The notes below the pieces were generated by a model. The model was not told the origin of the DNA. It made no database searches and worked only from the letters and a program-made list of their open reading frames with translations. Shown here in pieces: positions 26,033 through 42,567 of a stretch of 64,000 nt of DNA. Origin of the DNA: Vicinamibacteria bacterium (lineage in GTDB: Bacteria > Acidobacteriota > Vicinamibacteria > Marinacidobacterales > Marinacidobacteraceae); NCBI GenBank assembly GCA_963555995.3, contig OY821641.1:3680001-3744000 (forward strand), written 5' to 3'. Within the stretch, counting starts at the first letter, position 1, and the number at the start of each line of letters is the position of its first letter. The position numbers were made by a program, and so were the translations under genes.

Positions 26033-26249
26033 GACAGAACCTCCTGGGGGTCGGGAAGCGCATGGCGGCCAGCCGTAGCTGGTGACGACCCTCACTACCC
26101 CGTCCCCGTGAATGGAACAAGGCAGATTACCACAGGCAACCGCGCCGGTGGCGAAAGGGAACGGAAGGGCGGGACTGTTGCCTGCCGCACGGATTGGCGC
26201 CAATCCGGAGAGTGCCGGGGTGTGTTGACCGGCGAAACGCCGGAGGGGG

Positions 26250-27305
26250 TCAGTCCCCCTCGCACCCGCCTTCCGCGATCGACGCCAGGATCTCGGTCAC
26301 CTGGGCGGCGTTCGCATGGTCGGGCGCCAGTTCCATGAACGTCTGGTAGTGCGTCTCGGCGTTGCCGCAGTCGTCACGGTTATAGAAGATGGTGCCGAGG
26401 GCGAAGTTGGCGTCCACGATCCGAGGGTCCCCCGCCGCCGACCCGGAGAGGAAGCCCTGGTAGTGGGTGACCGCCCGGTCCTCGTCCGAACCCTGGAGCG
26501 CCTGCGCCAGCATGAAGTGGGCGTCCGGGACGCCCCGGTCTCCTCCGGCGTTCGCCAGGTAGGCGGTCAGCCGCGCGTCGGCCTTGGCGTAGTCGCCGGC
26601 GTTGTAGTTGAGCTGGCCGGCGAGGAACAGGACGCTGGCGATCGGGTTCGGAGCGTTGTCGATCACGACGGAAAACGCCCGCTCGGCGCCCGCGCTGTCG
26701 CCCGTCGACAGGAGGGCGACCGCCAGCCGGTAGTGCACCTCAACGTCGGTCCCGCCCGCTCGGGAAGCCGCCTGCAGCAGGGGAATGGCATCCTGCATCG
26801 CGCCCGCCCGCGCGTACGCGATGCCGCCGGAGCGCTGGGCGGTGGCGATCTGGTCCGAGAGCTGCGACGCTGCCTCCGAGTTTCCCCGGACCCCGTCCAG
26901 GAAGGCGGTGAAGTTGACCGCGGTGTTCGCCCAGTCCTCTTTCGTCTGGTGGGCGACGCCGAGGAAGTAGTTCATGATGAACGCCCCGGGGTTCGCCTCG
27001 ACCGCCATCTGGCAGTAGGCGATCACGCTGTCCCACTGCTGCGCCTCGAACGCCGGCTGGCACTGGAGGCTGTAGGCGTAGTTCACCGTCTGCGCCCAGT
27101 GGGCGTAGTACGGATGGTCCTCGGGAAGTACATCGAGTACCTCGGGGCAGGTGGCGAGGACCGCTTCGTAGTTCTGACCGTCCACGGCCTGCATGCAGGC
27201 GGCGGCCTTCTGCGGGTCCACATCCTGGGCCGTCGCCTCCGGGGCGCTTCCCATGAGTACGCCGAACGCGGCGACTACCGACAGGGCGAGGAATCGGGTG
27301 GGCAT
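26250..27305 (-). CDS. Secreted TPR protein, paralogue 2
   Basis: AAGGAG RBS, signal peptide (ATA-Q), TPR motifs collinear with paralogue 1. Confidence 0.8.
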   Translation of the reverse strand: MPTRFLALSVVAAFGVLMGSAPEATAQDVDPQKAAACMQAVDGQNYEAVLATCPEVLDVLPEDHPYYAHWAQTVNYAYSLQCQPAFEAQQWDSVIAYCQMAVEANPGAFIMNYFLGVAHQTKEDWANTAVNFTAFLDGVRGNSEAASQLSDQIATAQRSGGIAYARAGAMQDAIPLLQAASRAGGTDVEVHYRLAVALLSTGDSAGAERAFSVVIDNAPNPIASVLFLAGQLNYNAGDYAKADARLTAYLANAGGDRGVPDAHFMLAQALQGSDEDRAVTHYQGFLSGSAAGDPRIVDANFALGTIFYNRDDCGNAETHYQTFMELAPDHANAAQVTEILASIAEGGCEGD

Positions 27306-27391
27306 GACGAATGTCTCCTTGACGGGATGACCGGACGCCCCTTGGCGCGCACTCTGATGAAGGCGGTCGCGGCCCGTGCGAACGGGGGAAA

Positions 27392-28387
27392 CTAGCATAG
27401 CCCTCGGGGATTCAGCGAATTCCCGGCGGGAGCCGGACAGGGTGCGAAACCCTCCTCCAGATAGCGCCGGACCTCGGCGGCGCGTTCGTGGTCCGGCGTG
27501 ATCCGCAGGAAGTCCTCGTAGTGCCGGCGGGCCTGATCGCATTCCTCCCGGTCGGCCGCGATGGTGCCGAGGAAGTAGTGCGCGACCGCCGCGCGGGGGG
27601 TATCCGGTTCGACCTCGAGGAGCGCGGCGAAGTGGTTCCGCGCCGCGTCGGCGGCGCCGGGGTCCGCGGTCTCGGACTCCGAACTCCTGAGGGCGATGGA
27701 CCCGGCCATCCAGTGCGCGTCGGCGGCGAAGGGGCCTGCCGGGGCCGCTTCCAGATAGCGGGCGAGGTGAGCGCCCGCCGCCTCGTAATCCCCCGCGTCG
27801 TAGCGGAGTTGTCCGGCGAAGAAGCGCGCCTGGCTGATCTGGGGGGCTTCCCGGATCACCACCGAAAACGCAGCCTCCGCCCCTTCGCCGTCACCGCGCT
27901 GCATCAGGCCCACCCCGAGGAAGAAGTGGACCTCGGCGTCGGCCGGGTCCGCTTCGGCGGTCCGGCGGAGGAGAGGGAGCGCGGTCTCGAGGTCTCCCCC
28001 GCGAAACCACGCCAGCCCGGCGCTCCGCGCCGCGATACCGAGTTGCTCGTCCGGCCGCGGAACGTCTTCGGGCAGTTCCTCGACGGCGCCGAGGAAGGAC
28101 TCGAACGCGGCGCCGGCCCTGGTCCACTCCTGCCGCGCCTGGTAGGCGAAACCGAGGAAGTAGTGGATGCCGTAGGTGTCCGGGGACTCCCGGATCGCCT
28201 CTTCGCAGCGGGTCACGGCGGCGTCCCAGTCGGACGCCTGCGCGGCCGCCTCGCATTCCGAGACGGCGCCCGAGCCCTGCGGCGCCGGCAGCGCGAAGAG
28301 GGGGCCGGCCGCGAGTAGGCCGACGGCGCACGGAACGAAGGGTGCCGGGAGAACCCCGGCGAGGCTCCTAGCCAGCCCGAGATTCAC
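27392..28387 (-). CDS. Secreted TPR protein, paralogue 3
   Basis: TPR motifs (IHYFLGFAY, VHFFLG, AHYFLG); GTG start uncertain. Confidence 0.75.
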   Translation of the reverse strand: MNLGLARSLAGVLPAPFVPCAVGLLAAGPLFALPAPQGSGAVSECEAAAQASDWDAAVTRCEEAIRESPDTYGIHYFLGFAYQARQEWTRAGAAFESFLGAVEELPEDVPRPDEQLGIAARSAGLAWFRGGDLETALPLLRRTAEADPADAEVHFFLGVGLMQRGDGEGAEAAFSVVIREAPQISQARFFAGQLRYDAGDYEAAGAHLARYLEAAPAGPFAADAHWMAGSIALRSSESETADPGAADAARNHFAALLEVEPDTPRAAVAHYFLGTIAADREECDQARRHYEDFLRITPDHERAAEVRRYLEEGFAPCPAPAGNSLNPRGLC

Positions 28388-28712
28388 TGGAGGACGAGGA
28401 GGTCTTGGCGCTGCTCGTCGCTGCCGACGTGGCTCCCGAACTCTCCTTCCCCTTGGATTTCCCGGAGTCCGATTTTCCCGGTCCACCCTTCGCCGCGGAC
28501 CCGTTCTTCCCGTTGGCAGCCTTCTCGCCGGACTTCCTCGCGTAGTCGGTCACGTACCAGCCGCTGCCCAGGAACTGGATCGCCGGGCTGGAGACGATCC
28601 GGTGGGCGGCTCCGCCGCAGTGCCGGCAGGCATCGAGCGGCTCGTCGCTGATGCGCTGGATGGCCTCGAACACCTGCTCGCAGTCGTCGCAGCGGTATTC
28701 GTAGATGGGCAT
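28368..28712 (-). CDS. FmdB family zinc-ribbon protein
   Basis: MPIYEYRCDDC..CRHC..FLGSGWYVTDY plus low-complexity tail. Confidence 0.9.
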   Translation of the reverse strand: MPIYEYRCDDCEQVFEAIQRISDEPLDACRHCGGAAHRIVSSPAIQFLGSGWYVTDYARKSGEKAANGKNGSAAKGGPGKSDSGKSKGKESSGATSAATSSAKTSSSSSESRAG

Positions 28713-28772: not shown

Positions 28773-30347
28773 TTAGCGCGCCAGCGGCGGCGTGGTTGGC
28801 GGCGGTTTCCGGTGAGCGGTCGCCTGCTCGTAGGCGTACGAGATGCGGAAGAGCGCGCCCTCGCCGAGAGCGTTCCCGAGCAGTTGCAGTCCACCCGGCA
28901 GCCCGGACGGAGTAAAGCCCATGGGAACGGTGACCGCCGGAAACCCGGTGGGAGGGGAGAGCTGGGGCGAGTTGTTCCCGTCGGGCGTGGTCAGGTCGCC
29001 CAGGAGGCGCGGGGGATTGCTCCAGGTGGGGAAGGCAAGCGCGTCGAGATCCTCGGCTTCGAACAGGCCCCCGACCTCGGCCCGCAGTTCTCCGGCGCGC
29101 CGGTTCGCCTCGGCGCAGATGTCGTCCGGCTCGCCCTCCACCTCAAGGGCGGTTTCGAGCCGCGGCCGGATGGACGGATGGAAGTCGCCGCCCTCCACCA
29201 GGTCCTCGAGCGTCGTCACCGGGGCGTCCGGTCCGAGGCTCGCCAGGTAGGCCTCGAGCTGGGCGCGGAAGGGGTTGCACCACAGCGATCCCTCGGCTTC
29301 AAGCCCCTCGATCCGCACCGGGTCCACCACGGTGACCCCGAGCGCCTCGAGGTCGGCGAGGGCCGCTTCGAAGAGCGCTCCGATGTCGGCGTCCGCGGTC
29401 TCGGTGTCGCTGAGCTGACGGACGACGCCGATCCGGAAATCGGTGAGCGGCCCCGCGTCGAGGTACCGGAGGTAGTCGCTCTCGCGCTCGAACCCCTCCG
29501 TCGCCTCGTCGGCCGGGTCCGGCCCCGCCAGCACGTCGAAGACCCGCACCCCGTCTTCGACGGTGCGCGCCATCGGGCCGCCGATGTCCCGGAAGAGGTT
29601 GAGCGGGACGATCCCGTCCCGGCTCGTCAGTCCCATCGTGGACCGGATGCCGAAGAGGGCGTTGTGGGACGAGGGTCCGCGGATGGAGTTGCCGGTGTCC
29701 GTCCCGAGGCCCACCGCCCCGAAGCTCGCGGCCACCGCGGCGCCGGTGCCTCCCGAGGATCCCGCCGGCACCCGATAGGGGTCATACGGGTTCCGGACAT
29801 GGCCGGGAATGACCGAGCCGAGGCTCTGGTAGGCGCTGAAGGCGAACTCGGCCATGTGCGACTTGGCGAGCACGATGGCCCCCGCTTCCCGGATCCTCTG
29901 CACCTGGAAGGCGTCGTCGGGCGGGACCGAGTCCGCGAGCGACGCCGATCCGGCGCTCGTGGGGAGGTCCGCGGTGTCGTAGTTGTCCTTCACGATCATC
30001 GGGACGCACTCGAGCGGCCGGTCCGGGTCGAGCCCGGAGCCCGCGAGGCGCGCGTCGGCTTCCGCGGCCCGCTCCGTCGCCTGCGGATTGACCGTCACGA
30101 TCGCGTGGAGCGCCGGACCCTCGCGGTCATAGGCCTCGATCCGGGCCAGGTAGGCCGTGACCAGTTCCGCGCAGGTGAAGTCGCCGGCCTGAAGGCCCTG
30201 GTGGATCCCGGCGATGTCGAGTTCCACCACATCGAGCCCGGCCATCGCTTCCGGCGCCGGAGCGCCGCAACTGGCCGCACCGCAGGCCGCGATGAGCGCC
30301 GGTGCGATCCTGTTTCCCTTTCCGAGAGTCCCCGCTGTACCAACCAT
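28773..30347 (-). CDS. Amidase signature family protein (probable lipoprotein)
   Basis: VKDNYDT, GSSGGTG, GTDTGNSIRGPS; paralogue of 14774..16384. Confidence 0.9.
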   Translation of the reverse strand: MVGTAGTLGKGNRIAPALIAACGAASCGAPAPEAMAGLDVVELDIAGIHQGLQAGDFTCAELVTAYLARIEAYDREGPALHAIVTVNPQATERAAEADARLAGSGLDPDRPLECVPMIVKDNYDTADLPTSAGSASLADSVPPDDAFQVQRIREAGAIVLAKSHMAEFAFSAYQSLGSVIPGHVRNPYDPYRVPAGSSGGTGAAVAASFGAVGLGTDTGNSIRGPSSHNALFGIRSTMGLTSRDGIVPLNLFRDIGGPMARTVEDGVRVFDVLAGPDPADEATEGFERESDYLRYLDAGPLTDFRIGVVRQLSDTETADADIGALFEAALADLEALGVTVVDPVRIEGLEAEGSLWCNPFRAQLEAYLASLGPDAPVTTLEDLVEGGDFHPSIRPRLETALEVEGEPDDICAEANRRAGELRAEVGGLFEAEDLDALAFPTWSNPPRLLGDLTTPDGNNSPQLSPPTGFPAVTVPMGFTPSGLPGGLQLLGNALGEGALFRISYAYEQATAHRKPPPTTPPLAR

Positions 30348-30490: not shown

Positions 30491-30595
30491 ATGACGCTCA
30501 GCGAGTCAGCCCGGTCGCGCCATTCCCGGCAATGGCTGTGGCGATGGCGATTTTGCATCAGGCCGGGCTCGCCTCGCGTCCGTTCGATCCACTGA
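30491..30595 (+). CDS. trpL: trp operon leader peptide (34 aa, W15-L-W17-R-W19)
   Basis: MTLSESARSRHSRQWLWRWRFCIRPGSPRVRSIH; TACAAT -10 at 30476-30481; directly upstream of trpD. Confidence 0.75.
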   Translation: MTLSESARSRHSRQWLWRWRFCIRPGSPRVRSIH

Positions 30596-30630
30596 TTGCG
30601 GCGGGAGGCGGCCCGACCCGGGACGCCTCC
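30563..30630 (+). promoter_or_regulatory. Attenuator-like alternative hairpins
   Basis: GGGCTCGCCTC (30565-75) pairs with GAGGCGGCCC (30605-14), competing with GGAGGCG/CGCCTCC (30604-30630); no U-tract. Confidence 0.55.
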
Positions 30631-30732: not shown

Positions 30733-31764
30733 GTGATCGCCCCTCTCCTCGAAACCCTGCTCTCCGGCGAGGCCGCCGATTCCGGCGCGCTGGAGACCGC
30801 GCTCCACCGGATCCTGGCCGGAGAGAGCGATGTCGCCCAGACCGCCGGACTGCTGGTCGCTCTCCGGATCAACGAGCCCGACGCCGCCACGCTGGCCGCG
30901 TGCGCCCGCGCGCTCCGGGGTCACCGGAAGGCCGTCATGTCACAAGTGCGGCCGCTGGTGGACACCTGCGGAACCGGTGGCGACAAGAGCGGCACCTTCA
31001 ACATCTCCACCGCTTCGGCGCTGGTCGTCGCCGCCGCCGGCGGCGCGGTGGCCAAGCACGGCAACCGCAGCGTGTCGTCCATCACCGGCAGCGCGGACGT
31101 GCTGGAAGTCTGCGGCGCGCCGCTTCACCTCGAGCCCGGCCAGGCGTCCCGGATCCTGGACTCCACGGGCTTCGTCTTCCTGTTCGCTCCCGCCTTCCAC
31201 CCCGCCATGGCCCACGTCGGGCCGGCGCGCCGGGCGCTCGGGATCCGCACCCTCTTCAACGTCCTCGGCCCGCTCGCGAACCCGGCGCTCGCCGACCGCC
31301 AGTTGATCGGCGTCTACGACCCGGCCCTGACCGAGACCGTCGCGGGCGCGCTCGCCGAACTCGGGTCCGCCTCGGCGCTCGTCGTGCACTGCGAGGGACT
31401 GGATGAAATCGGCCTTCATGCCACGACCCGGGGCCACGCGCTGAACGACGGGAAGGTGACGCCGGTCGAGATCCGGGTCTCCGAACTCGGGCTTCGCGAA
31501 GCCTCGATCGAGGAACTGCGGGGGGGCGCCACCTCGCAGAACGCGGAGATCCTGCGCGCCGTGCTCTCCGGGGAGGACGAAGGACCGAAGCGGGACGTGG
31601 TGGCCGCGAACGCGGGCGCCGCCCTCACCGTCGCCGGCCTCGCGCCGGACCTGCCGGCCGGGGTGAAGACCGCGCTGGAGACCCTGGCGTCGGGCCGCGC
31701 GCTGCGCACGCTGGAACGCTACGTGGAGACCAGCATGCGGATGACCGGAATGAACGTGGCGTGA
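30733..31764 (+). CDS. trpD: Anthranilate phosphoribosyltransferase
   Basis: DTCGTGGD, FNIST, KHGNRSVSS, GSADVLE, GPLANP; AAGGAG RBS before GTG. Confidence 0.95.
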   Translation: MIAPLLETLLSGEAADSGALETALHRILAGESDVAQTAGLLVALRINEPDAATLAACARALRGHRKAVMSQVRPLVDTCGTGGDKSGTFNISTASALVVAAAGGAVAKHGNRSVSSITGSADVLEVCGAPLHLEPGQASRILDSTGFVFLFAPAFHPAMAHVGPARRALGIRTLFNVLGPLANPALADRQLIGVYDPALTETVAGALAELGSASALVVHCEGLDEIGLHATTRGHALNDGKVTPVEIRVSELGLREASIEELRGGATSQNAEILRAVLSGEDEGPKRDVVAANAGAALTVAGLAPDLPAGVKTALETLASGRALRTLERYVETSMRMTGMNVA

Positions 31765-32537
31765 CGGAAGGGGTACTCGAGCGGCTCGTCCGGGCCGCCG
31801 AGGCAAGAGCGGAGCGGCTCGCGGCGGAACCGGACCCCGGGCCTCCTGACGGGGAGCCTCCTTCTTTCCGGAACGCGATCGCCGGGCGGGACGCGCTGTC
31901 GGTGATCGCCGAGTTCAAGCGGAAGAGTCCGAGCGCCGGGTCCATCCGCGACGACGATCCCGGCGCCCGGGCGCTGGCGTACCGGGAGGCCGGCGCCTCC
32001 GCCGTCTCCGTGCTGACCGACCCGGATGCCTTCGGGGGGGCCCTCGCGGACCTGCAGGCGGCTTCGGCGGCCTCCGGCCTCCCCGTCCTCATGAAGGACT
32101 TCATCGTGCACCCGGCGCAGGTCCGGGCGGGGTGGGCGGCGGGAGCGTCCGCGGTGCTGCTGATCGTCCGCTGCCTGGACGACGCCCGGCTTCGCCGTCT
32201 CCATCGGGAGGTGCGGTCGCTGGGGCTCGACGCCCTGGTCGAGGTGCACGATGCGGCGGAACTGGATCGCGCCCTGGCGCTCGACGACGCGATCGTGGGG
32301 ATCAACAACCGGGACCTGGACACGCTCCGGACGGATCGCCGCCGCGCCCGGGACCTCCTTCCCCGGGTTCCCTCCGGACGGATCGCCGTCGCCGAGAGCG
32401 GGTATCTCGAGCCGGAACACCTGGTGGAGTTGCGGGGGCGGGCGGACGCGGTGCTCATCGGGACCGCGTTGATGCGCGCCGCCGACCCGTCGGCGTTTCT
32501 CCGGGCTGCAACGGAACCCGTACCGGCCGGCGTCTGA
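31761..32537 (+). CDS. trpC: Indole-3-glycerol phosphate synthase
   Basis: IAEFKRKSPS, SVLTD, KDFI, GINNRDL, AESG. Confidence 0.95.
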   Translation: MTEGVLERLVRAAEARAERLAAEPDPGPPDGEPPSFRNAIAGRDALSVIAEFKRKSPSAGSIRDDDPGARALAYREAGASAVSVLTDPDAFGGALADLQAASAASGLPVLMKDFIVHPAQVRAGWAAGASAVLLIVRCLDDARLRRLHREVRSLGLDALVEVHDAAELDRALALDDAIVGINNRDLDTLRTDRRRARDLLPRVPSGRIAVAESGYLEPEHLVELRGRADAVLIGTALMRAADPSAFLRAATEPVPAGV

Positions 32538-32549
32538 CCGGCGCGCGTC

Positions 32550-33173
32550 GTGGAGATCAAGATCTGCGGCCTCCGGAGGCCGGAGGACGCCCGTCTGGCC
32601 GTGCGGCTCGGCGCCCGGTGGATCGGCGTGGTCCGCGCTCCGGACTCCCCGCGCTCGGCATCGCTCGAAGAGGCCCGGCAGGTCATCGCGGCCGCCAGGG
32701 AGGTCAATCCGGAGGTGCGGCCCGTGCTCGCGACCGGGAGGCGCACCCGCGACGAGGTCGCCTCGGACGCGCTCGCGCTGGGAGTGGAGCGGGTCCAGCC
32801 CCACGGCCTCTCGGAAGCCGGCGTCCGCACCCTCACCCAGGCGGGCCTCGTCGTTCACCGGGTCGTGACCGTGCCCGAGACCGCGGCTCGACTTCCGGAT
32901 TTCGAGCCCCCCGCGGGGAAGGACGGTCCGCTCGTCTTCGACGTGGGAGGCGGCGGCAGCGGCCGGGCCTTCGATTGGCGCATTCTGGGCGAGCGGGCGC
33001 CGGGGCGGGCGTTCATCGCCGGCGGGCTGCGGCCCGAGAACATCGGGCGGCTCCTTCCCTACCGGCCCTGGGGCGTGGATGTCTCGAGCGGGATCGAGTC
33101 GTCGCCCGGGGTCAAGGATCCCGAGCGGATGCGGCGGTTCTTCGACCTGCTCCGGCCGCCTGCGGTCTCATGA
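32550..33173 (+). CDS. trpF: Phosphoribosylanthranilate isomerase
   Basis: KICGL, GGSGRAFDW, AGGLRPEN, GVDVSSGIE. Confidence 0.92.
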   Translation: MEIKICGLRRPEDARLAVRLGARWIGVVRAPDSPRSASLEEARQVIAAAREVNPEVRPVLATGRRTRDEVASDALALGVERVQPHGLSEAGVRTLTQAGLVVHRVVTVPETAARLPDFEPPAGKDGPLVFDVGGGGSGRAFDWRILGERAPGRAFIAGGLRPENIGRLLPYRPWGVDVSSGIESSPGVKDPERMRRFFDLLRPPAVS

Positions 33174-34366
33174 AGTCCTCACTCCGTCCCCGCCAGGGCG
33201 CGTTCGGCTCCTTCGGCGGGCGTTTCGCTCCGGAACTTCTCATCCCCGCGCTCGAGGAACTGGAGTCGGCCCGGCGGGAGATCGTCCCCACGAAGGCGTT
33301 CCGGGACGAACTGGACTGCGAGGCGCGCGCCTGGGTGGGGCGGCCGACTCCCCTCACCAGCGTCCCCCGGTTCTCGGATCGGGCCGGCCTCGAAACGGTC
33401 TTCAAGCGCGAGGACCTGCTCCACGGCGGCGCCCACAAGGCGAACAACGTCCTGGGGCAGGCGCTCCTGGCCCGGCACATGGGCAAGTCCCGGCTGATCG
33501 CGGAGACCGGCGCCGGGCAGCACGGGACCGCGACCGCGATGATCGCCGCGCGCTTCGGAATGCAGGCGGTGGTCTACATGGGGGAGAAGGACATGGAGCG
33601 CCAGGCCCCCAACGTGAAGCGGATGGAGCTCTGCGGCGCCGAAGTCATCCCCGTGACCGCGGGCGCGCGCACGCTCAAGGACGCCATCAACGAGGCGCTT
33701 CGCGACTGGACGGCGAGCCTGTCCACGACCCACTACCTGCTCGGGACGGCCGCGGGCCCCCATCCCTTTCCGCGGCTGGTGCGGGACTTCCAGGCGGTCA
33801 TCGGCCGCGAGGCGAAGCGGCAGTGGCGGCGGGAGTTCGGCGGTCTCCCCGACGTGGTGGTGGCGTGCGTCGGCGGCGGCAGCAACGCCATCGGCATCTT
33901 CCACGCCTTCGTTCCCGAGGAGCCGGTGCGGCTCGTCGGCGTCGAACCCGGCGGAGCGGGACTCGACAGCGGCCGTCACGGCGCCACCCTTGTCCGGGGC
34001 ACGCCCGGCCTGCTCCACGGAGCCCGGACGATGATCCTGCAGGACGACGACGGGCAGATCCTCGAACCGCACAGCGTCTCGGCCGGGCTCGACTACCCCG
34101 GCGTGGGCCCCGAGCATGCCCACCTCCAGGAGACCGGCCGGGCCGGCTACGTGGCCGCCACCGACGAGGAAGCGCTGGCGGCCTTCGAGGTGCTGTCGGC
34201 CACCGAGGGGATCGTCCCCGCCTTCGAGCCCTCGCACGCGCTCGCGTTCGTGCTGCGCGCCCGGGAGTCGGGAGAGCTTCCCGCCGGGGCGCGGGTGCTC
34301 CTGAACCTCTGCGGGCGCGGCGACAAGGACCTCGAGACCTACTTCGCGCTCGACCGCTCCCGATGA
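33170..34366 (+). CDS. trpB: Tryptophan synthase beta chain
   Basis: KREDLLHGGAHK, AETGAGQHG, GGGSNA, SAGLDYPGVGP, GRGDKD. Confidence 0.96.
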   Translation: MKSSLRPRQGAFGSFGGRFAPELLIPALEELESARREIVPTKAFRDELDCEARAWVGRPTPLTSVPRFSDRAGLETVFKREDLLHGGAHKANNVLGQALLARHMGKSRLIAETGAGQHGTATAMIAARFGMQAVVYMGEKDMERQAPNVKRMELCGAEVIPVTAGARTLKDAINEALRDWTASLSTTHYLLGTAAGPHPFPRLVRDFQAVIGREAKRQWRREFGGLPDVVVACVGGGSNAIGIFHAFVPEEPVRLVGVEPGGAGLDSGRHGATLVRGTPGLLHGARTMILQDDDGQILEPHSVSAGLDYPGVGPEHAHLQETGRAGYVAATDEEALAAFEVLSATEGIVPAFEPSHALAFVLRARESGELPAGARVLLNLCGRGDKDLETYFALDRSR

Positions 34367-35160
34367 GCCTCCGGTCGCTCCGCTCCGCACTCGGCCACGG
34401 TCCGGTGGTCTCGCCGTTTCTCGTCCTCGGGGACCCGACTCCCGAACTTTCCGTCGAGCTGGCGCGGGCCGCGGTCTCCGCGGGAGCGGGCATGCTCGAG
34501 ATCGGATTCCCGTACAGCGATCCGGTGGCTGACGGACCGGCGATCCAGGCGGCCGCTCAGCGCGCGCTCGCCGGGGGGACTTCGACCCGCACCGCGTTCG
34601 ACGTGCTGGGCCGGATCGCGTCGGCCTGTCCCGGCGTACCGCTGAACCTGCTGGTGTATGGCAATCTCGTGCATCGCACCGGATACGAGCGATTCACGGG
34701 TGCGGCAACGGACGCCGGTGCTTCCACGCTCCTGGTACCCGACATCCCCATTGATGAGGCGACTCCGCTGCGCCGGGCGTGCCAGGGCTCCGGTCTCGGC
34801 CACGTCGAGCTGGCGGGTCCCCTGACCCCGGCGGCGCGTCTCCGACGGCTCGCCGCCGCTTCGCGTTTTCTGTATCTGGCCGGCTTCCAGGGCGTCACCG
34901 GGGTGCGCGCGGCCGGTTTCGGCGGCGTCCTCGACCGGGTCGCCGAGGTTCGAGAGATCACCGACGTTCCGGTATGTCTCGGTTTCGGGCTTTCCAGCCG
35001 GGATCAGATCGTCCGCGCCTTCGGGGCCGGCGCGGAGATCGCGGTCGTCGGAAGCCACCTCGCGCGGGTCGTGGGAACCCTCTATGGCGCTCCCGCGGAC
35101 GCGGGTCGCCTCGTCGCCGGTTACCGTTCCGCCGTGCGCGGGCTCACCTCGAACGGGTAG
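34363..35160 (+). CDS. trpA: Tryptophan synthase alpha chain
   Basis: GDP, LEIGFPYSDPVADGPAIQ, GVTG, GFG. Confidence 0.94.
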   Translation: MSLRSLRSALGHGPVVSPFLVLGDPTPELSVELARAAVSAGAGMLEIGFPYSDPVADGPAIQAAAQRALAGGTSTRTAFDVLGRIASACPGVPLNLLVYGNLVHRTGYERFTGAATDAGASTLLVPDIPIDEATPLRRACQGSGLGHVELAGPLTPAARLRRLAAASRFLYLAGFQGVTGVRAAGFGGVLDRVAEVREITDVPVCLGFGLSSRDQIVRAFGAGAEIAVVGSHLARVVGTLYGAPADAGRLVAGYRSAVRGLTSNG

Positions 35161-35179
35161 GGAGGAGAAGGGACAGACC

Positions 35180-36184
35180 ATGCTGGTCATCATGCGGACG
35201 AACCCCACCGAGGAACAATGCGGACGGGTGGAGACTGCGATCCGCGACATGGGTTTCACCCCGCTCCGGGTGCCGGGCGCCGACCGGACCGCGATCTGCG
35301 TCACCGGGAACCGGGGTCCGGTGGACCCCTCGTTCCTGATCCGGCTCCCCGGGGTCGCCCGCTGTATTCCCGTCACCAAGCCGTTCAAGCTGGTCAGCCG
35401 CGAGGTCCACCCGGCGGAGACGATTGTGGAGATCGGCGGGGTGCCGGTGGGAGGTCCGGAGCCCATCGTGATCGCCGGTCCGGGCAGCGTCGAGACCGAG
35501 GCCAGGACCCTGGACATCGCCCGCGCGGTGAAGAAGGCGGGCGCCCACGCATTCCGCGCGCGCCTGTGGGCGGAGCGGGTCGGTCCGTACCACTTCGGCG
35601 GGGTCGGCGACGAAGGGGTGCACACCCTGGACCGCGTGCGCGAGGAGACGGGGCTCCCGGTGATCACCGAGGTCATTGATCCGCGGTCGGCGGAGCAGGT
35701 GGCGGAACGCGTCGACTGCGTCCAGATCGCGGCCCGGCACATGGAGAACGAGGCGCTCCTGGACGTGGCGTGCGGCCTCGGGAAGCCCGTGATCGTGGAA
35801 CGCGCGCCGTCCGCGAGCGTGGAGGAGTGGCTGATGGCGGCGGAGTCGCTGCTGGCCCGGGAGAAGCGGGACGTGATCCTGTGCGAACGGGGAATCCGCA
35901 CCGGCGGCCAGCGGCGGACGCTGCTGGACCTCCACGTCGTGCCGGTGGTGCGGCGCATGACCCATCTGCCGGTGCTGGTGGACCCGTCGCGCGCCGTCGC
36001 GGAACGGGACCGCGTCCGTCCGCTGGCCCGCGCCGCCCTGGGCGCCGGCGCTTCGGGCCTGCTGCTTGAGGTGCACACCCACCCGGACACCGCCTACACC
36101 GACCCGATGCAGACCGTGGATATCCCGACCTTCGAGGGCATCCAGCGCGACCTCGTCAAGATCGGCGAGTTCGAGGCGCTATAA
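35180..36184 (+). CDS. Type I-beta DAHP synthase homologue with N-terminal regulatory domain; catalytic residues substituted
   Basis: KPFKLVSRE, IAGPGSVE, CERGIRT, HLPVLVDPS, EVH; GGAGGAG RBS; C, KPRT, K and H motif residues lost. Confidence 0.85.
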   Translation: MLVIMRTNPTEEQCGRVETAIRDMGFTPLRVPGADRTAICVTGNRGPVDPSFLIRLPGVARCIPVTKPFKLVSREVHPAETIVEIGGVPVGGPEPIVIAGPGSVETEARTLDIARAVKKAGAHAFRARLWAERVGPYHFGGVGDEGVHTLDRVREETGLPVITEVIDPRSAEQVAERVDCVQIAARHMENEALLDVACGLGKPVIVERAPSASVEEWLMAAESLLAREKRDVILCERGIRTGGQRRTLLDLHVVPVVRRMTHLPVLVDPSRAVAERDRVRPLARAALGAGASGLLLEVHTHPDTAYTDPMQTVDIPTFEGIQRDLVKIGEFEAL

Positions 36185-36205
36185 CAGCCTGCTGGCGCCA
36201 TCCCC

Positions 36206-37093
36206 GTGACCGAACCAACTCCGCCGCCACCCGAAGCGGGCGACGTCTCGTTCGGGCGGACCCTGCTCCAGTTCTTCGTGATCCCCATGCTGGTGGTGAT
36301 CCTGGGCGTCGGGATCTTCCTGGGGTTCGCGTGGCTCGTCTCCGACGACACGACCGCCGAGGAACAGCTCCAGCGGATCCGCTCCGGAGGGCACCGCGAG
36401 GCGCGGCAGGCCGCGTTTGAACTCGCGAACCGCATCCAGCACGGCGATCCCGCAGAGTTCCGGGCTCTGGGTCCCGATCTGGTGCGGGCCTTCGAGGAAG
36501 CGGGAGCGCCGGCGGACCCGTGGGTGCGCCAGTACCTCGCGCTCGCCCTCGGAACCCTCTCCGAAGCGACGGCGGTTCCGGTGCTCGCCGCGGCGCTTGC
36601 CGATCCGGACGAGACGGTGCGGGTCTATGCGGCCTGGGCGCTCGGCTCCATCGGGGGCGGCGCCGCGGTTTCCGCGCTCAGCGAAGCCAGCCGCGCCGAT
36701 GACGCGGGACTCCGCACGATGGCGGTCTACGGGCTCGGGGCGATCGGCGATCCCGCGGGCGCCGACGCGCTCCGGCGAGCGGTTGACGATCCGGTGCTGG
36801 ACGTTTCCGTGAACGCGGTGGTGGCGCTCGCCCGCATCGGCGACGACGCGGCCGCCGCCCGGTTGCTCGGCATGATGGAGCCGGATTACTGGGCGAACGT
36901 GCCGGGCATGCTGGAGGGCGAGCGGACGCTCGCCCGGCTGAGCGCCGTGCAGGCGGCCGGCGTGCTGGAGACCCCGATGGTGCGGGCCCGGCTCGAGGAG
37001 GTCGGCGCGAACGATCCGGATCTCCGGGTTCGGGAGGCCGCACTCTCGGCCCTCGCGGGCGGGGGGCGGACGAAACCGCCGGCGCCTCCCTGA
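36206..37093 (+). CDS. Membrane-anchored HEAT-repeat protein
   Basis: TM helix (FFVIPMLVVILGVGIF) then repeated VR..AAWALG-type units. Confidence 0.82.
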   Translation: MTEPTPPPPEAGDVSFGRTLLQFFVIPMLVVILGVGIFLGFAWLVSDDTTAEEQLQRIRSGGHREARQAAFELANRIQHGDPAEFRALGPDLVRAFEEAGAPADPWVRQYLALALGTLSEATAVPVLAAALADPDETVRVYAAWALGSIGGGAAVSALSEASRADDAGLRTMAVYGLGAIGDPAGADALRRAVDDPVLDVSVNAVVALARIGDDAAAARLLGMMEPDYWANVPGMLEGERTLARLSAVQAAGVLETPMVRARLEEVGANDPDLRVREAALSALAGGGRTKPPAPP

Positions 37094-37194
37094 CGCGCGG
37101 CCGGAACGGTCCGGAGGCGAACAAACCCATAGCTCGATTCGGGGGGCTTCCGTTAGAATCCCGCGCCGATCCACAATTCCTCCAACTGCAAGCG

Positions 37195-37749
37195 ATGCCT
37201 GACCCCCCGGCCCCACCGGCAGCCCCCAAACCGGCTCCCCGGCGGGCCGCCGGCGCCGCGAAGAAGGTCACCCGCCGGGAGTTCCCGTTCCTCGCCATCG
37301 GCTGGGGAATGTTCACGGCCGCGATGGCGGCCGGCCTCACCGCGGCGGGCCGTTTCATGTTCCCGAACGTGCTCACCGAGCCGCCCTCGACCTTCACGGC
37401 CGGCTTCCCGGATGACTTCGCCATCGGGGTGGTGGACACCCGCTTCAAGGAGCGCTACCAGGTCTGGATCGTCCGGGACGAGGAGGGGATTTACGCCCTC
37501 TCCACGATCTGCACCCACCTGGGATGCACCCCGAACTGGCTGGAGGCCGAGAGCAAGTTCAAGTGCCCCTGCCACGGCAGCGGGTTCTACGCCTCCGGGA
37601 TCAACTTCGAGGGACCGGCGCCCCGGCCGCTGGAGCGGGTGGGGGTGAGTCTCGCGGAGGACGGCCAGGTCCTCATAGACAAGTCGCGCCTCTTCAAGTT
37701 CGAAGCGGGTCAGTGGTCCGACCCCGCTTCCTTCCTGTCGCTCACGTAA
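37195..37749 (+). CDS. Rieske 2Fe-2S subunit of cytochrome bc-type complex
   Basis: Tat motif TRREF; CTHLGC and CPCHGS; GPAPRPL; TAGAAT upstream. Confidence 0.93.
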
Positions 37750-37768
37750 GGCTGGAGAGGCGAGCGTC

Positions 37769-38569
37769 ATGTTGAACCGCATCCTCGCCCCTCTCTCCGC
37801 CGCTTGGAAGGAGGCGACGGACTCGCAGGTCTGGACCTCGATCTTCCGTCACGGCAAGCCGGTCAGCAACCGGAACCGGGCGCTCGTGATGATGAGCAAC
37901 GTGTTCCTGCACCTGCATCCGGTCAAGTCCCGGAAGGCGGGCATCAAGCTCCGCTACACCTGGTGCATGGGAGGCATCACGTTCTTCCTCTTCCTGGTGC
38001 TCACCTTCACCGGGCTGCTCCTGATGTTCTACTACCGGCCCACGGTGGAATACGCCTACGCGGACATCGTGGACCTGCAGGAGCACGTGCCGCTCGGCAT
38101 CATGCGGGAACTCCACCGCTGGGGCGCCCACGCGATGGTCATCACCGTGTGGCTGCACATGCTGCGCGTCTTCATGACCGGTTCCTACAAGCCGCCGCGG
38201 GAGTTCAACTGGGGCATCGGGGTGGTCCTGCTGGTGCTCACCCTGCTCCTGTCTTTCACCGGCTACCTGCTCCCTTGGGACCAGCTCGCGATCTGGGCCA
38301 TCGCGGTCGGCTCCAACATGGCGCGCGCGACACCCCTGCTCGGAACGGAAGGGCCGTTATCGGCGTCCCTCACCCTGGGGGACATCAGTCTCATCAACGC
38401 GGGGAACGACGCGCGCTTCGCGTTGCTGGGCGCCCGTTCGGTCGGCCAGCCGACGCTTCTCCGCTTCTATGTCCTCCACTGCGTCGGGCTGCCCCTGGCC
38501 GCCGCCTTCCTGATGGCGGTGCATTTCTGGCGGGTCCGCAAGGACGGGGGCATCTCGGGGCCGATGTAG
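37769..38569 (+). CDS. Cytochrome b N-terminal subunit (cytochrome b6-like)
   Basis: [40 protein letters not shown]. Confidence 0.92.
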
Positions 38570-38627
38570 GTCCGTGTTCCGAATCCACGTTTGAGACAAG
38601 ACGCTTCCGCCGCGACCCGCTGAGACG

Positions 38628-39749
38628 GTGATAGACCTCTTCAAGGACCTCGTCAACTGGGCTTCGGGGCCCACGGTCCTGTTCACGATCGCGACGCTCG
38701 GCCTCCTGGCTGCCTTTCGCTTCACCCAGGTCTGGAGCAAGACCTCGGCGAAGGTGTTCTTCGTGGTCCTCGCGGTGTTCTACACCGCGAGCATGTGGGA
38801 CCCCGACTTCTTCCTGATCGTCGCGAAGCCCGACAACATCCCGATCACCGGGGTCATCTTCCTGGTCTTCTTCTTCACCTGGTACGCGATGCACCAGGGG
38901 ATCCAGAACGACCGGCGGAGCGCGGGCGAGGAAGAGGTCCTCGAGAAACAGGAGTCCGAAAAGGTCTGGGTGTGGCCCGATCTCGTCTACACCGAGATGC
39001 TCGCGATGGTGCTGCTCAGCATCGTGCTGCTGGTGTGGTCCATCCTGCTGGCGGCGCCGCTGGAGCAGCCGGCGAACCCGGCCGACTCTCCCAATCCCTC
39101 GAAGGCGCCCTGGTACTTCCTCGGGCTCCAGGAGATGCTGGTCTATTTCGACCCCTGGCTCGCCGGCGTGGTCTTCCCCACGCTGATCATCGTGGGGCTG
39201 ATGGCGATTCCCTACATCGACACGAACCCGAAGGGGAACGGCTACTTCACCTTCAGGGAGCGGAAGGCCGAGATCGTCATCTTCCTGTTCGGCTTCCTGA
39301 TCCTCTGGTGCCTGCTGGTGGTCTCGGGCACCTTCCTGCGGGGGCCCAACTGGAACTTCTTCGGCCCCTACGAGTACTGGGACGTCCACCGGGTGGAGCC
39401 GCTGCTGAACGTCAACGTCTCCGACTTCTTCTGGGTGAAGCTGCTCGGGCGTCCGCTGCCCACGGGCGGGTTCTTCGCCGCGCTCATGCGGGAATGGCTC
39501 GGCATCCTGATGGTGGGGGCCTACCTGTTCGTGCTTCCGGTGGTCATGTCGTGGCCGAGGGACCGGTTCCCCACCGGGTTCAAGTGGCTGAGCTGCCACC
39601 ACTACTTCGAAAAGATGGGCGCCACCCGCTACTACATCGGCGTCAGCCTCTTCCTGATGATGATGAGCCTGCCGATCAAGATGTACCTGCGGTGGGCTTT
39701 CAACCTGAAGTACATCGTCGCCTTCCCCGAAATTTTCTTCAACATCTAG
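38628..39749 (+). CDS. Cytochrome b C-terminal / subunit IV-like membrane protein with extra helices
   Basis: WPDL, APLEQPANP..PNPSKAPWYFLGLQE (PEWY equivalent), PYID. Confidence 0.85.
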   Translation: MIDLFKDLVNWASGPTVLFTIATLGLLAAFRFTQVWSKTSAKVFFVVLAVFYTASMWDPDFFLIVAKPDNIPITGVIFLVFFFTWYAMHQGIQNDRRSAGEEEVLEKQESEKVWVWPDLVYTEMLAMVLLSIVLLVWSILLAAPLEQPANPADSPNPSKAPWYFLGLQEMLVYFDPWLAGVVFPTLIIVGLMAIPYIDTNPKGNGYFTFRERKAEIVIFLFGFLILWCLLVVSGTFLRGPNWNFFGPYEYWDVHRVEPLLNVNVSDFFWVKLLGRPLPTGGFFAALMREWLGILMVGAYLFVLPVVMSWPRDRFPTGFKWLSCHHYFEKMGATRYYIGVSLFLMMMSLPIKMYLRWAFNLKYIVAFPEIFFNI

Positions 39750-39759
39750 GCAACCACCC

Positions 39760-42567
39760 GTGTCCAAAGTCGCTCCCGGTCACGCCCACAACATCTCGAA
39801 GCTGAATGTCATCTTCGCGGTTTCGAGCGTCTTCCTCCTGTTCTCGACGCTCTGGATGATCTGGTTCGACTACTCGCGCGAGTGGAAGGGTTTCCAGCGG
39901 CAGTTCGTCCAGATGGAGCGCGACCTCACCGCGCGGCAGATCCAGGAGGCGCAGCAGGGGATCAACCAGGCGGACCTGCAGCGCGTTCAAGGCGAACTCC
40001 AGCAGGCCCGGACCGCCCTCGCCGCCGAGCAGGCCGCGCTCGAAGCCCTCGAAACGGAGATCGCGGACCTCGACACCCGCCGGACGCTGGCGGACATCCG
40101 CGAGCGCGAGATCAAGGCGGTTTACGACTCCGACAAGTTCTACTACGAGGAGACCCGCGAGCGCGGCACGCCGCTCGGCAGGGCGGTCAGCGACGACGAG
40201 TTCCAGGCGCTCGAAGCGAGCTTCTTCGCCGCGCGCGACGTCCGGGTGGCCCTCGACTTCGACCTCACCGAGAAGCGGGCGGAACTGCGCGGCCGGCGAT
40301 CCAGCGTGACGGAACTGGCCGGAACCATGGAGGAGTTGACCCAGGCGGTGACGCTCGCCCGCAACAAGCTCGACAGCCTGGCTCCCAGCTTCCCGAACAC
40401 CTTCCGCAACCTTCCCGTCGTGGACTTCATTGACCCCTCCATCGAGGTCCGGCAGGTGCTCGTGCGGAACGTCACCGAGGAACTCAACTTCGCCCAGGTG
40501 CCGCGGATTGATCGCTGCCAGACCTGTCACCTTGGGATTGACAACCCCGACTACGCGGACGCGCCCCAGCCCTTCACCACGCACCCGAACCTGGACATCT
40601 TCGTCAGTCGCGAGTCCAACCACCCGGTGGACGACTTCGGTTGCACCTCCTGCCACCTCGGACGGGGACGCAAGCTGAGTTTCAGCGGGGCGACCCACAT
40701 GCCCGAGTCGGTCGAGGAAGAACACGCGTGGATGGAGCAGTACGGCTGGAAGGAAGACCACTACTGGGACAACCCGATGTACCAGGCGAACCTCACGGAA
40801 GCGGGCTGCATCAAGTGTCACCGCGACCAGGTCTTCATTCCCGGAGCGCAGCAGCTCAACCAGAGCCGGATGACCTATGAACTCTCCGGCTGCTGGGGAT
40901 GTCACAACACGGCCGGTTACGAGGACAAGCGGAACCGGGGACCGTCGCTCAAGCGGATCGCCCACAAGACCGACCGCGACTTCGTGGCGCGCTGGGTACG
41001 GGATCCGAAGGCGTTCCGGCAGTCCACCTGGATGCCGACCTTCTGGAATCTGGAGAACAACCCGGACTCCGAACTCCGGGCTCGCAACGACACCGAGGTC
41101 GCGGCGATCGTGGAGTACGTCTTCGAGCATTCGACCGACGACGCCGACTACCCCGCGCCCCCGCGCGGGAACGCGGAACGCGGCGAGGCGCTGGTGAACG
41201 AGATCGGCTGCCTCGGGTGCCACCTCACCGACGAGAACGGGTACGACCAGGCGAGCATCTATCGGCGCCGGGGCCCGGCGCTCGTCGGTACCGGCACCAA
41301 GCTCGACGCGGGCTTCGTCTTCGAGTGGGTACGGAACCCGCGGCACTACTGGGAAGAGACCTACATGCCGGACCTCCGGCTCACCGACCAGGAGGCTGCC
41401 GACATCACCGCCTGGCTCATGGGGCTCGAAGCGAACGAGTTCGCTTCGGCGGCGGTTCCGCAGGCGGACGCCGGCGAACTCGACGAGCTGACCCGCGAGT
41501 TCCTGCGTACCAGCCTCCCGGATGCGATGGCCGCCGAGCGTCTCGCCGGGATGTCGGAGCGGGACAAGCTGCTCTTCTCGGGTGAATGGCTGATTCGCCG
41601 CCACGGCTGCTTCGGCTGCCACGAGATCGGCGGCTTCGAGGACGCCCAGAAGATCGGCGTGGACCTCTCGACGTGGGGATCCAAGATGGTCACCCGGCTG
41701 GACTTCGGCTACATCGACATCCCGCACACGCGCCAGGCCTGGCTGGAGCAGAAGCTCGCCCACCCCCGCAGCTACGACCGGGGGAAGGTGAAGAGCCCGG
41801 CCGAGAAACTGCGCATGCCGCAGTTCGGTTTCAGCGACGGTGACCGGCAGCACATCGTGCGGAACGTGCTGGGCCTCGTGCGCGACGAGTTCCCGCAGGA
41901 GGGCACCAAGACGCTCTCCGCGGCCGAGGCGGTCGCCGAGCAGGCCCGCCACCTCATCCACAACTACAACTGCCGCGGCTGCCACCTCATTGACGGCGTC
42001 GGCGGCGGGATCTACGAAACCATCGAAGACACCGGAATGCGCCCGCCCAACCTGAACACCCAAGGCAGCCGGACGCAGGCGGACTGGCTCTACCACTTCC
42101 TCGCGGACCCCACCGAGGTGCGGTTCTGGATGAACGTCCGGATGCCGAGCTTCAACTTCACCAACGAGGAATCCAACACCCTGATCTCCGGGTTCCTCGC
42201 CATGGACGGCGCCCAGCCCTTCGACGAGGAGCAGGAACGGGTGTACGACCGCGCCGAACTGCGGGTGGGCGCCCAGCTCCTCGACCAGCTCCAGTGCGAG
42301 CGCTGTCACATCGCCGCCGCCGCCGGCACCATGGAGGCGTCGCAGCTCGCCCCGTCCTTCCGCCTCTCGGGGGAACGGCTCACCCACGACTGGATCGTGG
42401 ACTGGATGCTCGATCCGCAGGCGATCACCCCGGGAACCCAGATGCCGCAGTTCTGGCCGACCGATCAGCAGGGCAACCGGCTGACGCCGCTGCCGGACGT
42501 GCTGGACGGCGACCCGATGGCGCAGATGCGCGCGGTGGCGTCGTACCTGATGAACTACGACCGCTGA
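39760..42567 (+). CDS. Membrane-anchored multiheme cytochrome c (8 CxxCH)
   Basis: CQTCH, CTSCH, CIKCH, CWGCH, CLGCH, CFGCH, CRGCH, CERCH; N-terminal TM and coiled coil. Confidence 0.9.
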   Translation: MSKVAPGHAHNISKLNVIFAVSSVFLLFSTLWMIWFDYSREWKGFQRQFVQMERDLTARQIQEAQQGINQADLQRVQGELQQARTALAAEQAALEALETEIADLDTRRTLADIREREIKAVYDSDKFYYEETRERGTPLGRAVSDDEFQALEASFFAARDVRVALDFDLTEKRAELRGRRSSVTELAGTMEELTQAVTLARNKLDSLAPSFPNTFRNLPVVDFIDPSIEVRQVLVRNVTEELNFAQVPRIDRCQTCHLGIDNPDYADAPQPFTTHPNLDIFVSRESNHPVDDFGCTSCHLGRGRKLSFSGATHMPESVEEEHAWMEQYGWKEDHYWDNPMYQANLTEAGCIKCHRDQVFIPGAQQLNQSRMTYELSGCWGCHNTAGYEDKRNRGPSLKRIAHKTDRDFVARWVRDPKAFRQSTWMPTFWNLENNPDSELRARNDTEVAAIVEYVFEHSTDDADYPAPPRGNAERGEALVNEIGCLGCHLTDENGYDQASIYRRRGPALVGTGTKLDAGFVFEWVRNPRHYWEETYMPDLRLTDQEAADITAWLMGLEANEFASAAVPQADAGELDELTREFLRTSLPDAMAAERLAGMSERDKLLFSGEWLIRRHGCFGCHEIGGFEDAQKIGVDLSTWGSKMVTRLDFGYIDIPHTRQAWLEQKLAHPRSYDRGKVKSPAEKLRMPQFGFSDGDRQHIVRNVLGLVRDEFPQEGTKTLSAAEAVAEQARHLIHNYNCRGCHLIDGVGGGIYETIEDTGMRPPNLNTQGSRTQADWLYHFLADPTEVRFWMNVRMPSFNFTNEESNTLISGFLAMDGAQPFDEEQERVYDRAELRVGAQLLDQLQCERCHIAAAAGTMEASQLAPSFRLSGERLTHDWIVDWMLDPQAITPGTQMPQFWPTDQQGNRLTPLPDVLDGDPMAQMRAVASYLMNYDR

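Follow-up and report, generated by a model that had tools for sequence, protein, structure and literature searches.

A predicted pseudo-DAHP synthase, held by selection, ends the trp operon of a family of largely sponge-associated Vicinamibacteria

The step into aromatic metabolism is catalysed by DAHP synthase (DAHPS), a textbook example of an allosterically controlled enzyme. What, then, does a homologue of this enzyme do as the last gene of a trp operon, when its active site appears to have been dismantled and its reading frame is intact? The question is raised by a gene in a 64,000-nucleotide stretch of a Vicinamibacteria bacterium (contig OY821641.1, positions 3,680,001 to 3,744,000), hereafter the window, whose relevant features are listed in Table 1. 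A sequence-only reading of this DNA had proposed a maintained, non-catalytic protein, for example a sensing subunit that associates with an active DAHPS.

Table 1. Features of the trp operon and of its terminal pseudo-DAHPS gene, in window positions.
Feature	Position	Strand	Evidence or remark
trp leader peptide, 34 aa, W-L-W-R-W	30491..30595	+	homologous to 16-25 aa trpL leaders (2-4 Trp) of relatives
Terminator-like hairpin without U-tract	30604..30630	+	5' arm alternatively pairs with upstream leader (antiterminator-like fold)
trpD, anthranilate phosphoribosyltransferase, first operon gene, no trpEG upstream	30733..31764	+	PF00591, PF02885
trpC	31761..32537	+	PF00218
trpF	32550..33173	+	PF00697
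trpB	33170..34366	+	PF00291
trpA, catalytic Glu and Asp conserved	34363..35160	+	PF00290, alignment
Spacer between trpA and pseudo-DAHPS, 19 nt, with ribosome-binding site	35161..35179	+	GGAGG and AAGGGA
Pseudo-DAHP synthase (type I-beta fold), 334 aa	35180..36184	+	barrel with remodelled active site: G102, R128, A131, V134, E207, R271
N-terminal ferredoxin-like/ACT-like domain, residues 1-67, intact and conserved	35180..35380	+	PF18152

The open reading frame contains no internal stop and starts 19 nt past the trpA stop, as expected from the earlier description of a full-length, intact gene with its own ribosome-binding site. Collinearity with type I-beta DAHPSs, N-terminal domain included, was likewise recovered: PF18152 covers residues 1-67 and PF00793 residues 88-321, and the protein aligned end to end with Thermotoga maritima DAHPS 1rzm (E 3e-62, 34% identity, collinear over 330 residues). 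An AlphaFold model made with 31 clade sequences (pLDDT 83) had DAHPS structures as its best structural matches (against 1rzm, VIA Z 36.1, 330 aligned residues, rmsd 5.0), and a search of the ESM Atlas returned DAHPS clusters only. The two-domain architecture and the fold are thus shared with the T. maritima type I-beta DAH7PS (PDB 1RZM, 1VR6, 3PG9; PRK08673), from which the window protein differs in the lack of two metal ligands, both PEP lysines and T134, and in its position at the end of a trp operon.

In type I-beta enzymes (T. maritima numbering), the metal is bound by C102, H272, E298 and D309, PEP by R126, K131, A185, R186, K207 and R237, and E4P by R133 and T134, and every reported DAHPS is a metalloenzyme, according to one account (PMC6362186). 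In the window protein, GPC has become GPG (C102G), RGGAYKPRTS has become RARLWAERVG (G128R, K131A, T134V), LLKRG has become IVERA (K207E) and DPSH has become DPSR (H272R; R271 here), which are the motif changes that the sequence-only reading had given. Two of the four metal ligands are therefore replaced (G102, R271), both lysines of the PEP site are gone while its arginines stay, and the E4P motif KPRT reads AERV. Additional changes comprise N187H, Q189E, F191E and Y223S, and the RTFE loop is shorter by one residue; the retained residues are R126, R133, Q182, A185, R186, R237, E298 and D309. Moreover, the protein scored below the NCBIfam cut-offs for DAHPS (327.8 vs. 335 bits for PRK08673; 259.5 vs. 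267.75 bits for TIGR01361) and far under those of KDO8P synthase HMMs (90 vs. 242 and 87.6 vs. 314 bits). A contig from a DNA run (1796 nt) spans 35246-37041 with zero differing letters, and loss of K131, K207 and T134 is common to the 31 closest proteins; the changes are attributable neither to chance nor to assembly error.

These 31 proteins, taken from the 120 best database hits, are 69-96% identical to the window protein; all have the RARL motif, and their residue 207 is acidic. In the set of 32 that includes the window protein, K131, T134 and K207 are absent in 32/32 and R133 in 18/32, so that homologues with the same substitutions, for which the sequence-only reading had suggested a search, do exist. 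For the full set, trees were built with FastTree, and LG+G4 was used on subsets for topology tests. The dead copies form one clade on a long stem, and its members are largely sponge-associated Vicinamibacteria, several of them Candidatus Marinacidobacterium; the sole run with a stated habitat was a sponge metagenome, where the clade had a small share. The metal triad is found as G/R/E in 20 members, C/H/A in 11 and S/H/S in one, and all four ligands occur in none of the 32. In the G/R/E class an arginine may take the place of the metal, and the other class would represent a three-ligand remnant. Because a single origin of the G/R/E state was only marginally rejected (p 0.045, LG+G4 subset), reversal and repeated gain of this state both stand.

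Codon models gave an omega of 0.063 for 28 pseudo copies of the family, compared with 0.055 for AroF, the intact DAHPS of the same family (21 sequences), 0.047 for intact orthologues of the pseudo-DAHPS (8 sequences), 0.045 for TrpB, 0.046 for TrpD and 0.103 for TrpA. An omega fixed at 1 was rejected (lnL -14041, against -12093 when free), both domains are constrained (ACT 0.057, barrel 0.053) and none of the 28 copies, at 71-99% identity, has an internal stop. Decay is thereby excluded, and the earlier view of a maintained pseudo-enzyme is borne out. Only 3 of 41 clade-diagnostic positions fall in residues 1-80 (p 0.006), and 26 of the 38 diagnostic barrel changes lie in loops of the active-site face (p 1e-5, with loop limits set by the analyst). 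The stem branch was faster, with an identity to the outgroup of 0.59, vs. 0.79 among outgroup orthologues. Judged from its sequence, the window protein is a pseudoenzyme, i.e., an enzyme fold with catalytic residues lost and held by selection, whose inactivity is predicted; that it is both dead and maintained we consider highly probable. Since the catalytic residues are lost and conservation yet equals that of working enzymes, a regulator is likely rather than an enzyme.

Comparison within the order points to the origin of this gene. In the two other families the orthologue is intact, 59-62% identical, and ends a trpE-G-D-C-F-B-A operon; for intact trp-operon DAHPSs of Vicinamibacteria, the range is 56-64%. 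Among the trpEG-containing operons (13 read directly and 3 inferred from coordinates), the catalytic residues checked are kept in 16/16, all ten of them in 15, and C102, K207 and H272 in G035, an assembly that splits the DAHPS copy as well as trpD and trpB. These intact proteins resemble the window protein in their position after trpA, in the ACT hairpin and in 28 signature residues, and differ from it by their catalytic residues and by the trpEG genes of their operons. In the pseudo-DAHPS family, the gene follows trpA in 27/27 loci, in agreement with the trp-operon synteny that had been expected, and trpEG lies upstream of trpD in 0/24 loci showing that region. In fact, all operons without trpEG, which are those of this family, of genus g18 and of genome G143, carry substitutions. 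Three g18 genomes have trpDCFBA and a DAHPS copy with S102, H133, S187 and E207 (omega 0.058, 3 sequences), and the copy of G143 has only R133H; the correlation comprises two or three independent events, with which a pairs test cannot reach significance. These comparisons show, at the level of sequence, a pseudo-DAHPS that descends from the intact DAHPS ending trpEGDCFBA operons, its catalytic residues having been lost where trpEG left.

Furthermore, five of the six genomes of the order without trpD are also without the orthologue. The sixth, G025 (560 contigs), has an intact copy on a contig that begins in trpB, with neither trpD nor trpE found, and is uninformative for this reason. The search for a chorismate-binding domain, positive in 14/14 controls, found none in 4/4 genomes of g18 and none in G143 (these genomes being 74-95% complete). 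Five genomes of 5-8 Mb (G146, G123, G152, G135 and G143) have trpD and no chorismate-binding enzyme that could be found, and trpDCFBA with a Trp leader was present in four loci read from them, which suggests that they make Trp from salvaged anthranilate. Kynureninase did not discriminate as a special anthranilate source of trpEG-less genomes, being present in 5/5 tested, one of which has trpEG. In other families of the order, DAHPS fusions are encoded (L046, L047, L048-L051, L171, L172), with domains named from motifs: a PDT-like domain comes after the DAHPS part in one kind (622 aa), and CM-PDT-like domains come before it in the other (about 700 aa).

The loss of the metal cysteine and the change at residue 207 go together beyond this clade. 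Among 89 outside orthologues, K207E/D was present in 14/16 without C102 vs. 1/73 with C102. On the best tree, with active-site columns removed, E207 needs 5 changes, at least 2 of them on starred branches, and one clade for E207 was rejected (AU p 8e-8; 36 of 121 rows used); as reconstructed here, the combination of K207E and a lost C102 has two or more origins. Because 10/149 distant cluster representatives are similarly dead, with 4 or more of the 10 core residues replaced, the dead class may be widespread and mis-annotated. The ten divergent representatives fetched were full length, and their lineages include Schekmanbacteria and Sphaerochaeta. The active site is also destroyed in P0173, P0181, P0199, P0212, P0253, P0265, P0272, P0287 and P0229, which are full-length DAHPS homologues of the ACT type and unrelated to the clade; P0181 has K207E, as does the window protein. 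A metagenome scan that had aimed at further K207E loci yielded 80 more distant loci, which served as a control set; all had the ten core residues except one with E298D.

Regarding the rest of the pathway, the source genome (93% complete) has exactly two PF00793 genes, the pseudo-DAHPS and AroF (G000:C1:1162263-1163280), and no class II DAHPS was found in it. AroF has all ten core residues, which fits the intact paralogue that the sequence-only reading had asked for; it is 35% identical to the pseudo-DAHPS and belongs to a distant clade. Its operon reads trpE-trpG-aroF-aroB-aroA-aroKDE-aroC, with a CM/TyrA-like gene upstream, and this arrangement was seen in all 20 family loci fetched (two cut by contig ends). 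A second DAHPS hit and chorismate synthase were each found in 26/27 other family genomes. With AroF, its operon and chorismate synthase in place, the aromatic pathway is complete without the pseudo-DAHPS gene, and since trpE lies in the aro operon of this family, Trp feedback is not missing either. The aro supra-operon (L001 1462-13604; G000:C1 about 1156000-1168600) includes an AroK-AroD-AroE-like triple fusion of 692 aa. Its TrpE shares only about 40% identity with the TrpE encoded in the trp operons of sister families, which suggests replacement by transfer, and the G+C contents of aroF and trpG (0.66 and 0.65) are under that of their neighbours.

The sequence-only reading had also called the trp operon Trp-attenuated, a description that is only partly sustained: a classic attenuator was the ancestor of the leader peptide and of the predicted hairpins, but it has lost its U-tract, and 9/24 family leaders have only one Trp in the run. 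As in classic ribosome-mediated attenuation (trpL), a Trp-bearing leader peptide and putative alternative hairpins precede the operon, whereas here the leader has 34 aa, Trp numbers 1-3 across the 24 family leaders examined, and no U-tract follows the hairpin. In the outgroup, 16 operons have leaders of 16-39 codons with 2-4 clustered Trp, and a U-run follows the hairpin in 4/4 aligned leaders; it is absent in the pseudo-DAHPS family, where the hairpin region is kept. Both alternative folds (antiterminator and terminator) were obtained for the window leader, with z of only -1.25 and -1.55, and a terminator scan did not call its hairpin. The 16 aro-operon trpE genes examined showed no comparable conserved leader, and neither TrpR nor TRAP was found in the genome. 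Trp control of the trp operon is plausible, but not of the textbook kind.

Several other observations were made around the operon. In close relatives, trpA and the pseudo-DAHPS barrel are shuffled (window 34363-36184; L052-L064, L074-L075): within the genus, TrpB and TrpD are 89-99% identical and TrpA 73-88%, with a discordant tree, and L052 and L054 have identical TrpA and different pseudo-DAHPS alleles. Palindromic intergenic repeats of 200-700 nt, possibly a MITE- or REP-like element, flank the pseudo gene on either side in relatives (L056 8740-9010; L062 8270-9010; L052/L058/L061/L062/L077 about 10000-10400). What separates the pseudo gene from trpA or from the HEAT gene in some relatives consists of repeat elements, and the inserts were therefore rejected as partner genes. 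In L077 (1950-5600), a transposase-like ORF (521 aa) and tandem repeats separate trpD from trpC. Upstream of the trp operon and divergent from it, an amidase-signature gene (window 28773-30347, -) and a small CxxC zinc-ribbon-like ORF (28368-28712, -) form a pair kept across the order, and three secreted TPR-like paralogues, in which Cys pairs are conserved, lie in tandem at 24935-28486 (-). Downstream, 21 nt after the pseudo-DAHPS stop, a run at 36206-42567 (+) encodes a HEAT-repeat membrane protein and a Rieske protein; it also includes two cytochrome b-like ORFs and an ORF of 935 aa in which CxxCH motifs recur. The order HEAT, Rieske, cytochrome b is conserved in the family. One RNA-labelled run, which yielded contigs of relatives, was discarded as evidence of pseudo-DAHPS expression, its depth being even over genes on both strands and over spacers, indistinguishable from DNA.

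In the N-terminal ACT-like domain, the hairpin residues V31, G33, C40 and G43 are present in 32/32 dead copies and near-invariant in dead and intact members, and G33, R36, T37 and G43 are common to the window protein and T. maritima. At positions 29, 31 and 40, the window protein has L, V and C vs. H, S and G in T. maritima DAH7PS. The 28 signature residues, which are rare in other DAHPSs and conserved in intact and dead members alike, include E18, M24, P28, V31, C40 and C62 in the ACT domain and T106, R109, T110, T149, R278, R280, Y306, T312 and T317 in the barrel. According to one study, the ACT-like domain of T. maritima binds Tyr or Phe and, once ligand-bound, closes over the active site (PMC5526877). 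If the signature residues form this closing switch, the pseudo-DAHPS would have retained a gate although its own site no longer needs closing.

In this context, our leading explanation, to which we give slightly less than even weight, is that the pseudo-DAHPS, itself without catalysis, regulates the branch downstream of anthranilate, from trpD to trpA, probably by sensing Trp. Retention of the gene follows the trp operon and tracks neither a particular active DAHPS nor the chorismate-to-anthranilate link, which favours an older role, independent of catalysis, in sensing aromatic amino acids. The ancestral trp-operon DAHPS would already have had this second role, tied to Trp enzymes, and with shikimate entry supplied by a separate intact AroF, catalysis by the trp-operon copy could have become dispensable. 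The protein would then fill the empty site with its own side chains, Glu207 in place of PEP, and Arg271 together with Glu297 in place of the metal. Through its subfamily pocket (L29, V31, C40), the ACT domain would remain able to bind an aromatic amino acid, from the genomic context most likely Trp, and the homo-oligomer would swing between open and closed forms. Contact would transmit the switch to a Trp-branch enzyme, most plausibly TrpD, which carries out the first PRPP-consuming step and whose operon offers no feedback site on a TrpE. Against this explanation stand the TrpE of the aro operon, through which Trp feedback exists in this family, and the two barrel allele classes described below. 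TrpD is weakly indicated as the target: it has the highest share of order-specific invariant residues (36/343, with 15 in residues 20-67, against an outgroup of 11 TrpD), a signature that may merely mark an order-specific homodimer interface. Partnership with TrpA was disfavoured, given that TrpA alleles of no more than 74% identity accompany pseudo alleles that are nearly the same (99%). A broader and more doubtful proposal, also drawn from sequence comparison, is that ACT-bearing type I-beta DAHPSs have an unrecognised second job and repeatedly become dedicated regulators through metal Cys loss plus K207E, the dead tetramer here being a Trp-gated regulatory subunit of TrpD.

Hetero-oligomerisation with an active DAHPS, as the sequence-only reading had imagined, is unlikely, even if it has something to commend it. 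The dead protein and AroF would form a heterotetramer in which the former activates the latter or lends it amino-acid feedback, and Trp-controlled expression of the dead subunit would go on tuning the entry to the shikimate pathway. AroF is the only other PF00793 gene in the source genome, most family genomes likewise have a second DAHPS hit, and the two proteins look complementary: AroF is catalytic and has an atypical ACT domain, with His at position 40 in 21/21 (Gly, Cys or Ala in 81/81 other loci) and variable G33 and T37, and the dead copy keeps the hairpin. However, selection also constrains the ACT domain of AroF (omega 0.061), and AroF is a distant xenologue. The lining of the tight DAHPS dimer (Q189, F191, Y223 and the RTFE loop) is remodelled in the dead copy and canonical in AroF. 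Trypanosome prozymes supply the precedent (PMC3663545, PMC5201418). Those of Trypanosoma AdoMetDC and deoxyhypusine synthase are also dead, conserved homologues beside an active enzyme, but they form heteromers with an active paralogue, whereas a pseudo-DAHPS heteromer is only a candidate and retention of the gene tracks the trp operon. Indeed, the gene is lost with the trp operon and not with the other DAHPS, and the same inactivation under selection occurred in g18, where the active enzyme is a CM-PDT-DAHPS fusion and no chorismate-binding TrpE was found, so that the comparative evidence leans against this association as a general role.

Rather improbable, too, is a neo-functionalised pocket, in which the barrel would bind or turn over another metabolite of the Trp branch (anthranilate, PRA/CdRP/IGP or Trp) by means of R126, R128, R186, R237, E207 and a new L129/W130 lid. 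Within the clade, R126, R128 and R237 are present in 32/32 and R186 in 30/32, and H187, E191, K229, H252 and P309 are new near-invariant residues. The metal triad switches in concert between its states, each of which may thus preserve a positive centre. Moreover, barrel alleles of the genus fall into two deep classes (68-88% identical in DNA) under ACT domains up to 99% identical, which points to some function in the old active-site pocket, and pseudoenzymes can have migrated catalytic residues (PMC10211241). Nevertheless, a catalytic site should not tolerate two metal-site states or variable residues 131-134 and 182, and no pathway step is lacking, since trpDCFBA occurs together with trpEG and the aro genes.

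PyrR is a precedent for an RNA-binding regulator of attenuation, and the dead enzyme might similarly bind the trp leader RNA or another nucleic acid, replacing the eroded ribosome attenuator. The loss of the U-tract and of some Trp codons in the same family, together with the failure to find TrpR or TRAP in the genome, would agree with this idea, which we nonetheless regard as a long shot: the net charge shows no basic shift (mean -3.6 vs. -2.5 in intact orthologues), and g18 combines a dead copy with a short leader (2-3 Trp) and a U-tailed terminator. It is very improbable that the protein remains a DAHPS, or acts as a metal-independent aldolase like some KDO8P synthases; the fold and R126, Q182, R186, R237, E298 and D309 are retained, and databases name close relatives 3-deoxy-7-phosphoheptulonate synthase, but C102, H272, K131, K207 and T134 are all replaced, residue 207 is acidic and the scores fall under both sets of cut-offs. 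Slow decay of a gene made redundant as an enzyme by the intact AroF, with which the accelerated stem branch would be in line, has a negligible probability, being refuted by dN/dS and by the stop-free family copies.

A literature search, mostly outside subscription papers, returned nothing on a catalytically dead DAHPS, and the text on pseudoenzymes (PMC10211241) contains no occurrence of DAHP. The dead copies are labelled 3-deoxy-7-phosphoheptulonate synthase, and would be counted as enzymes in metabolic models of uncultured bacteria. In brief, a family-wide, selectively maintained dead form, evolved convergently where trpEG was lost from the operon, implies a second role of DAHPS, and the intact, half-dead (g18) and fully dead orthologues provide a natural series in which this role could be found. 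If the dead protein is indeed a Trp-gated subunit of TrpD, operons without trpEG would gain a feedback control not described before.
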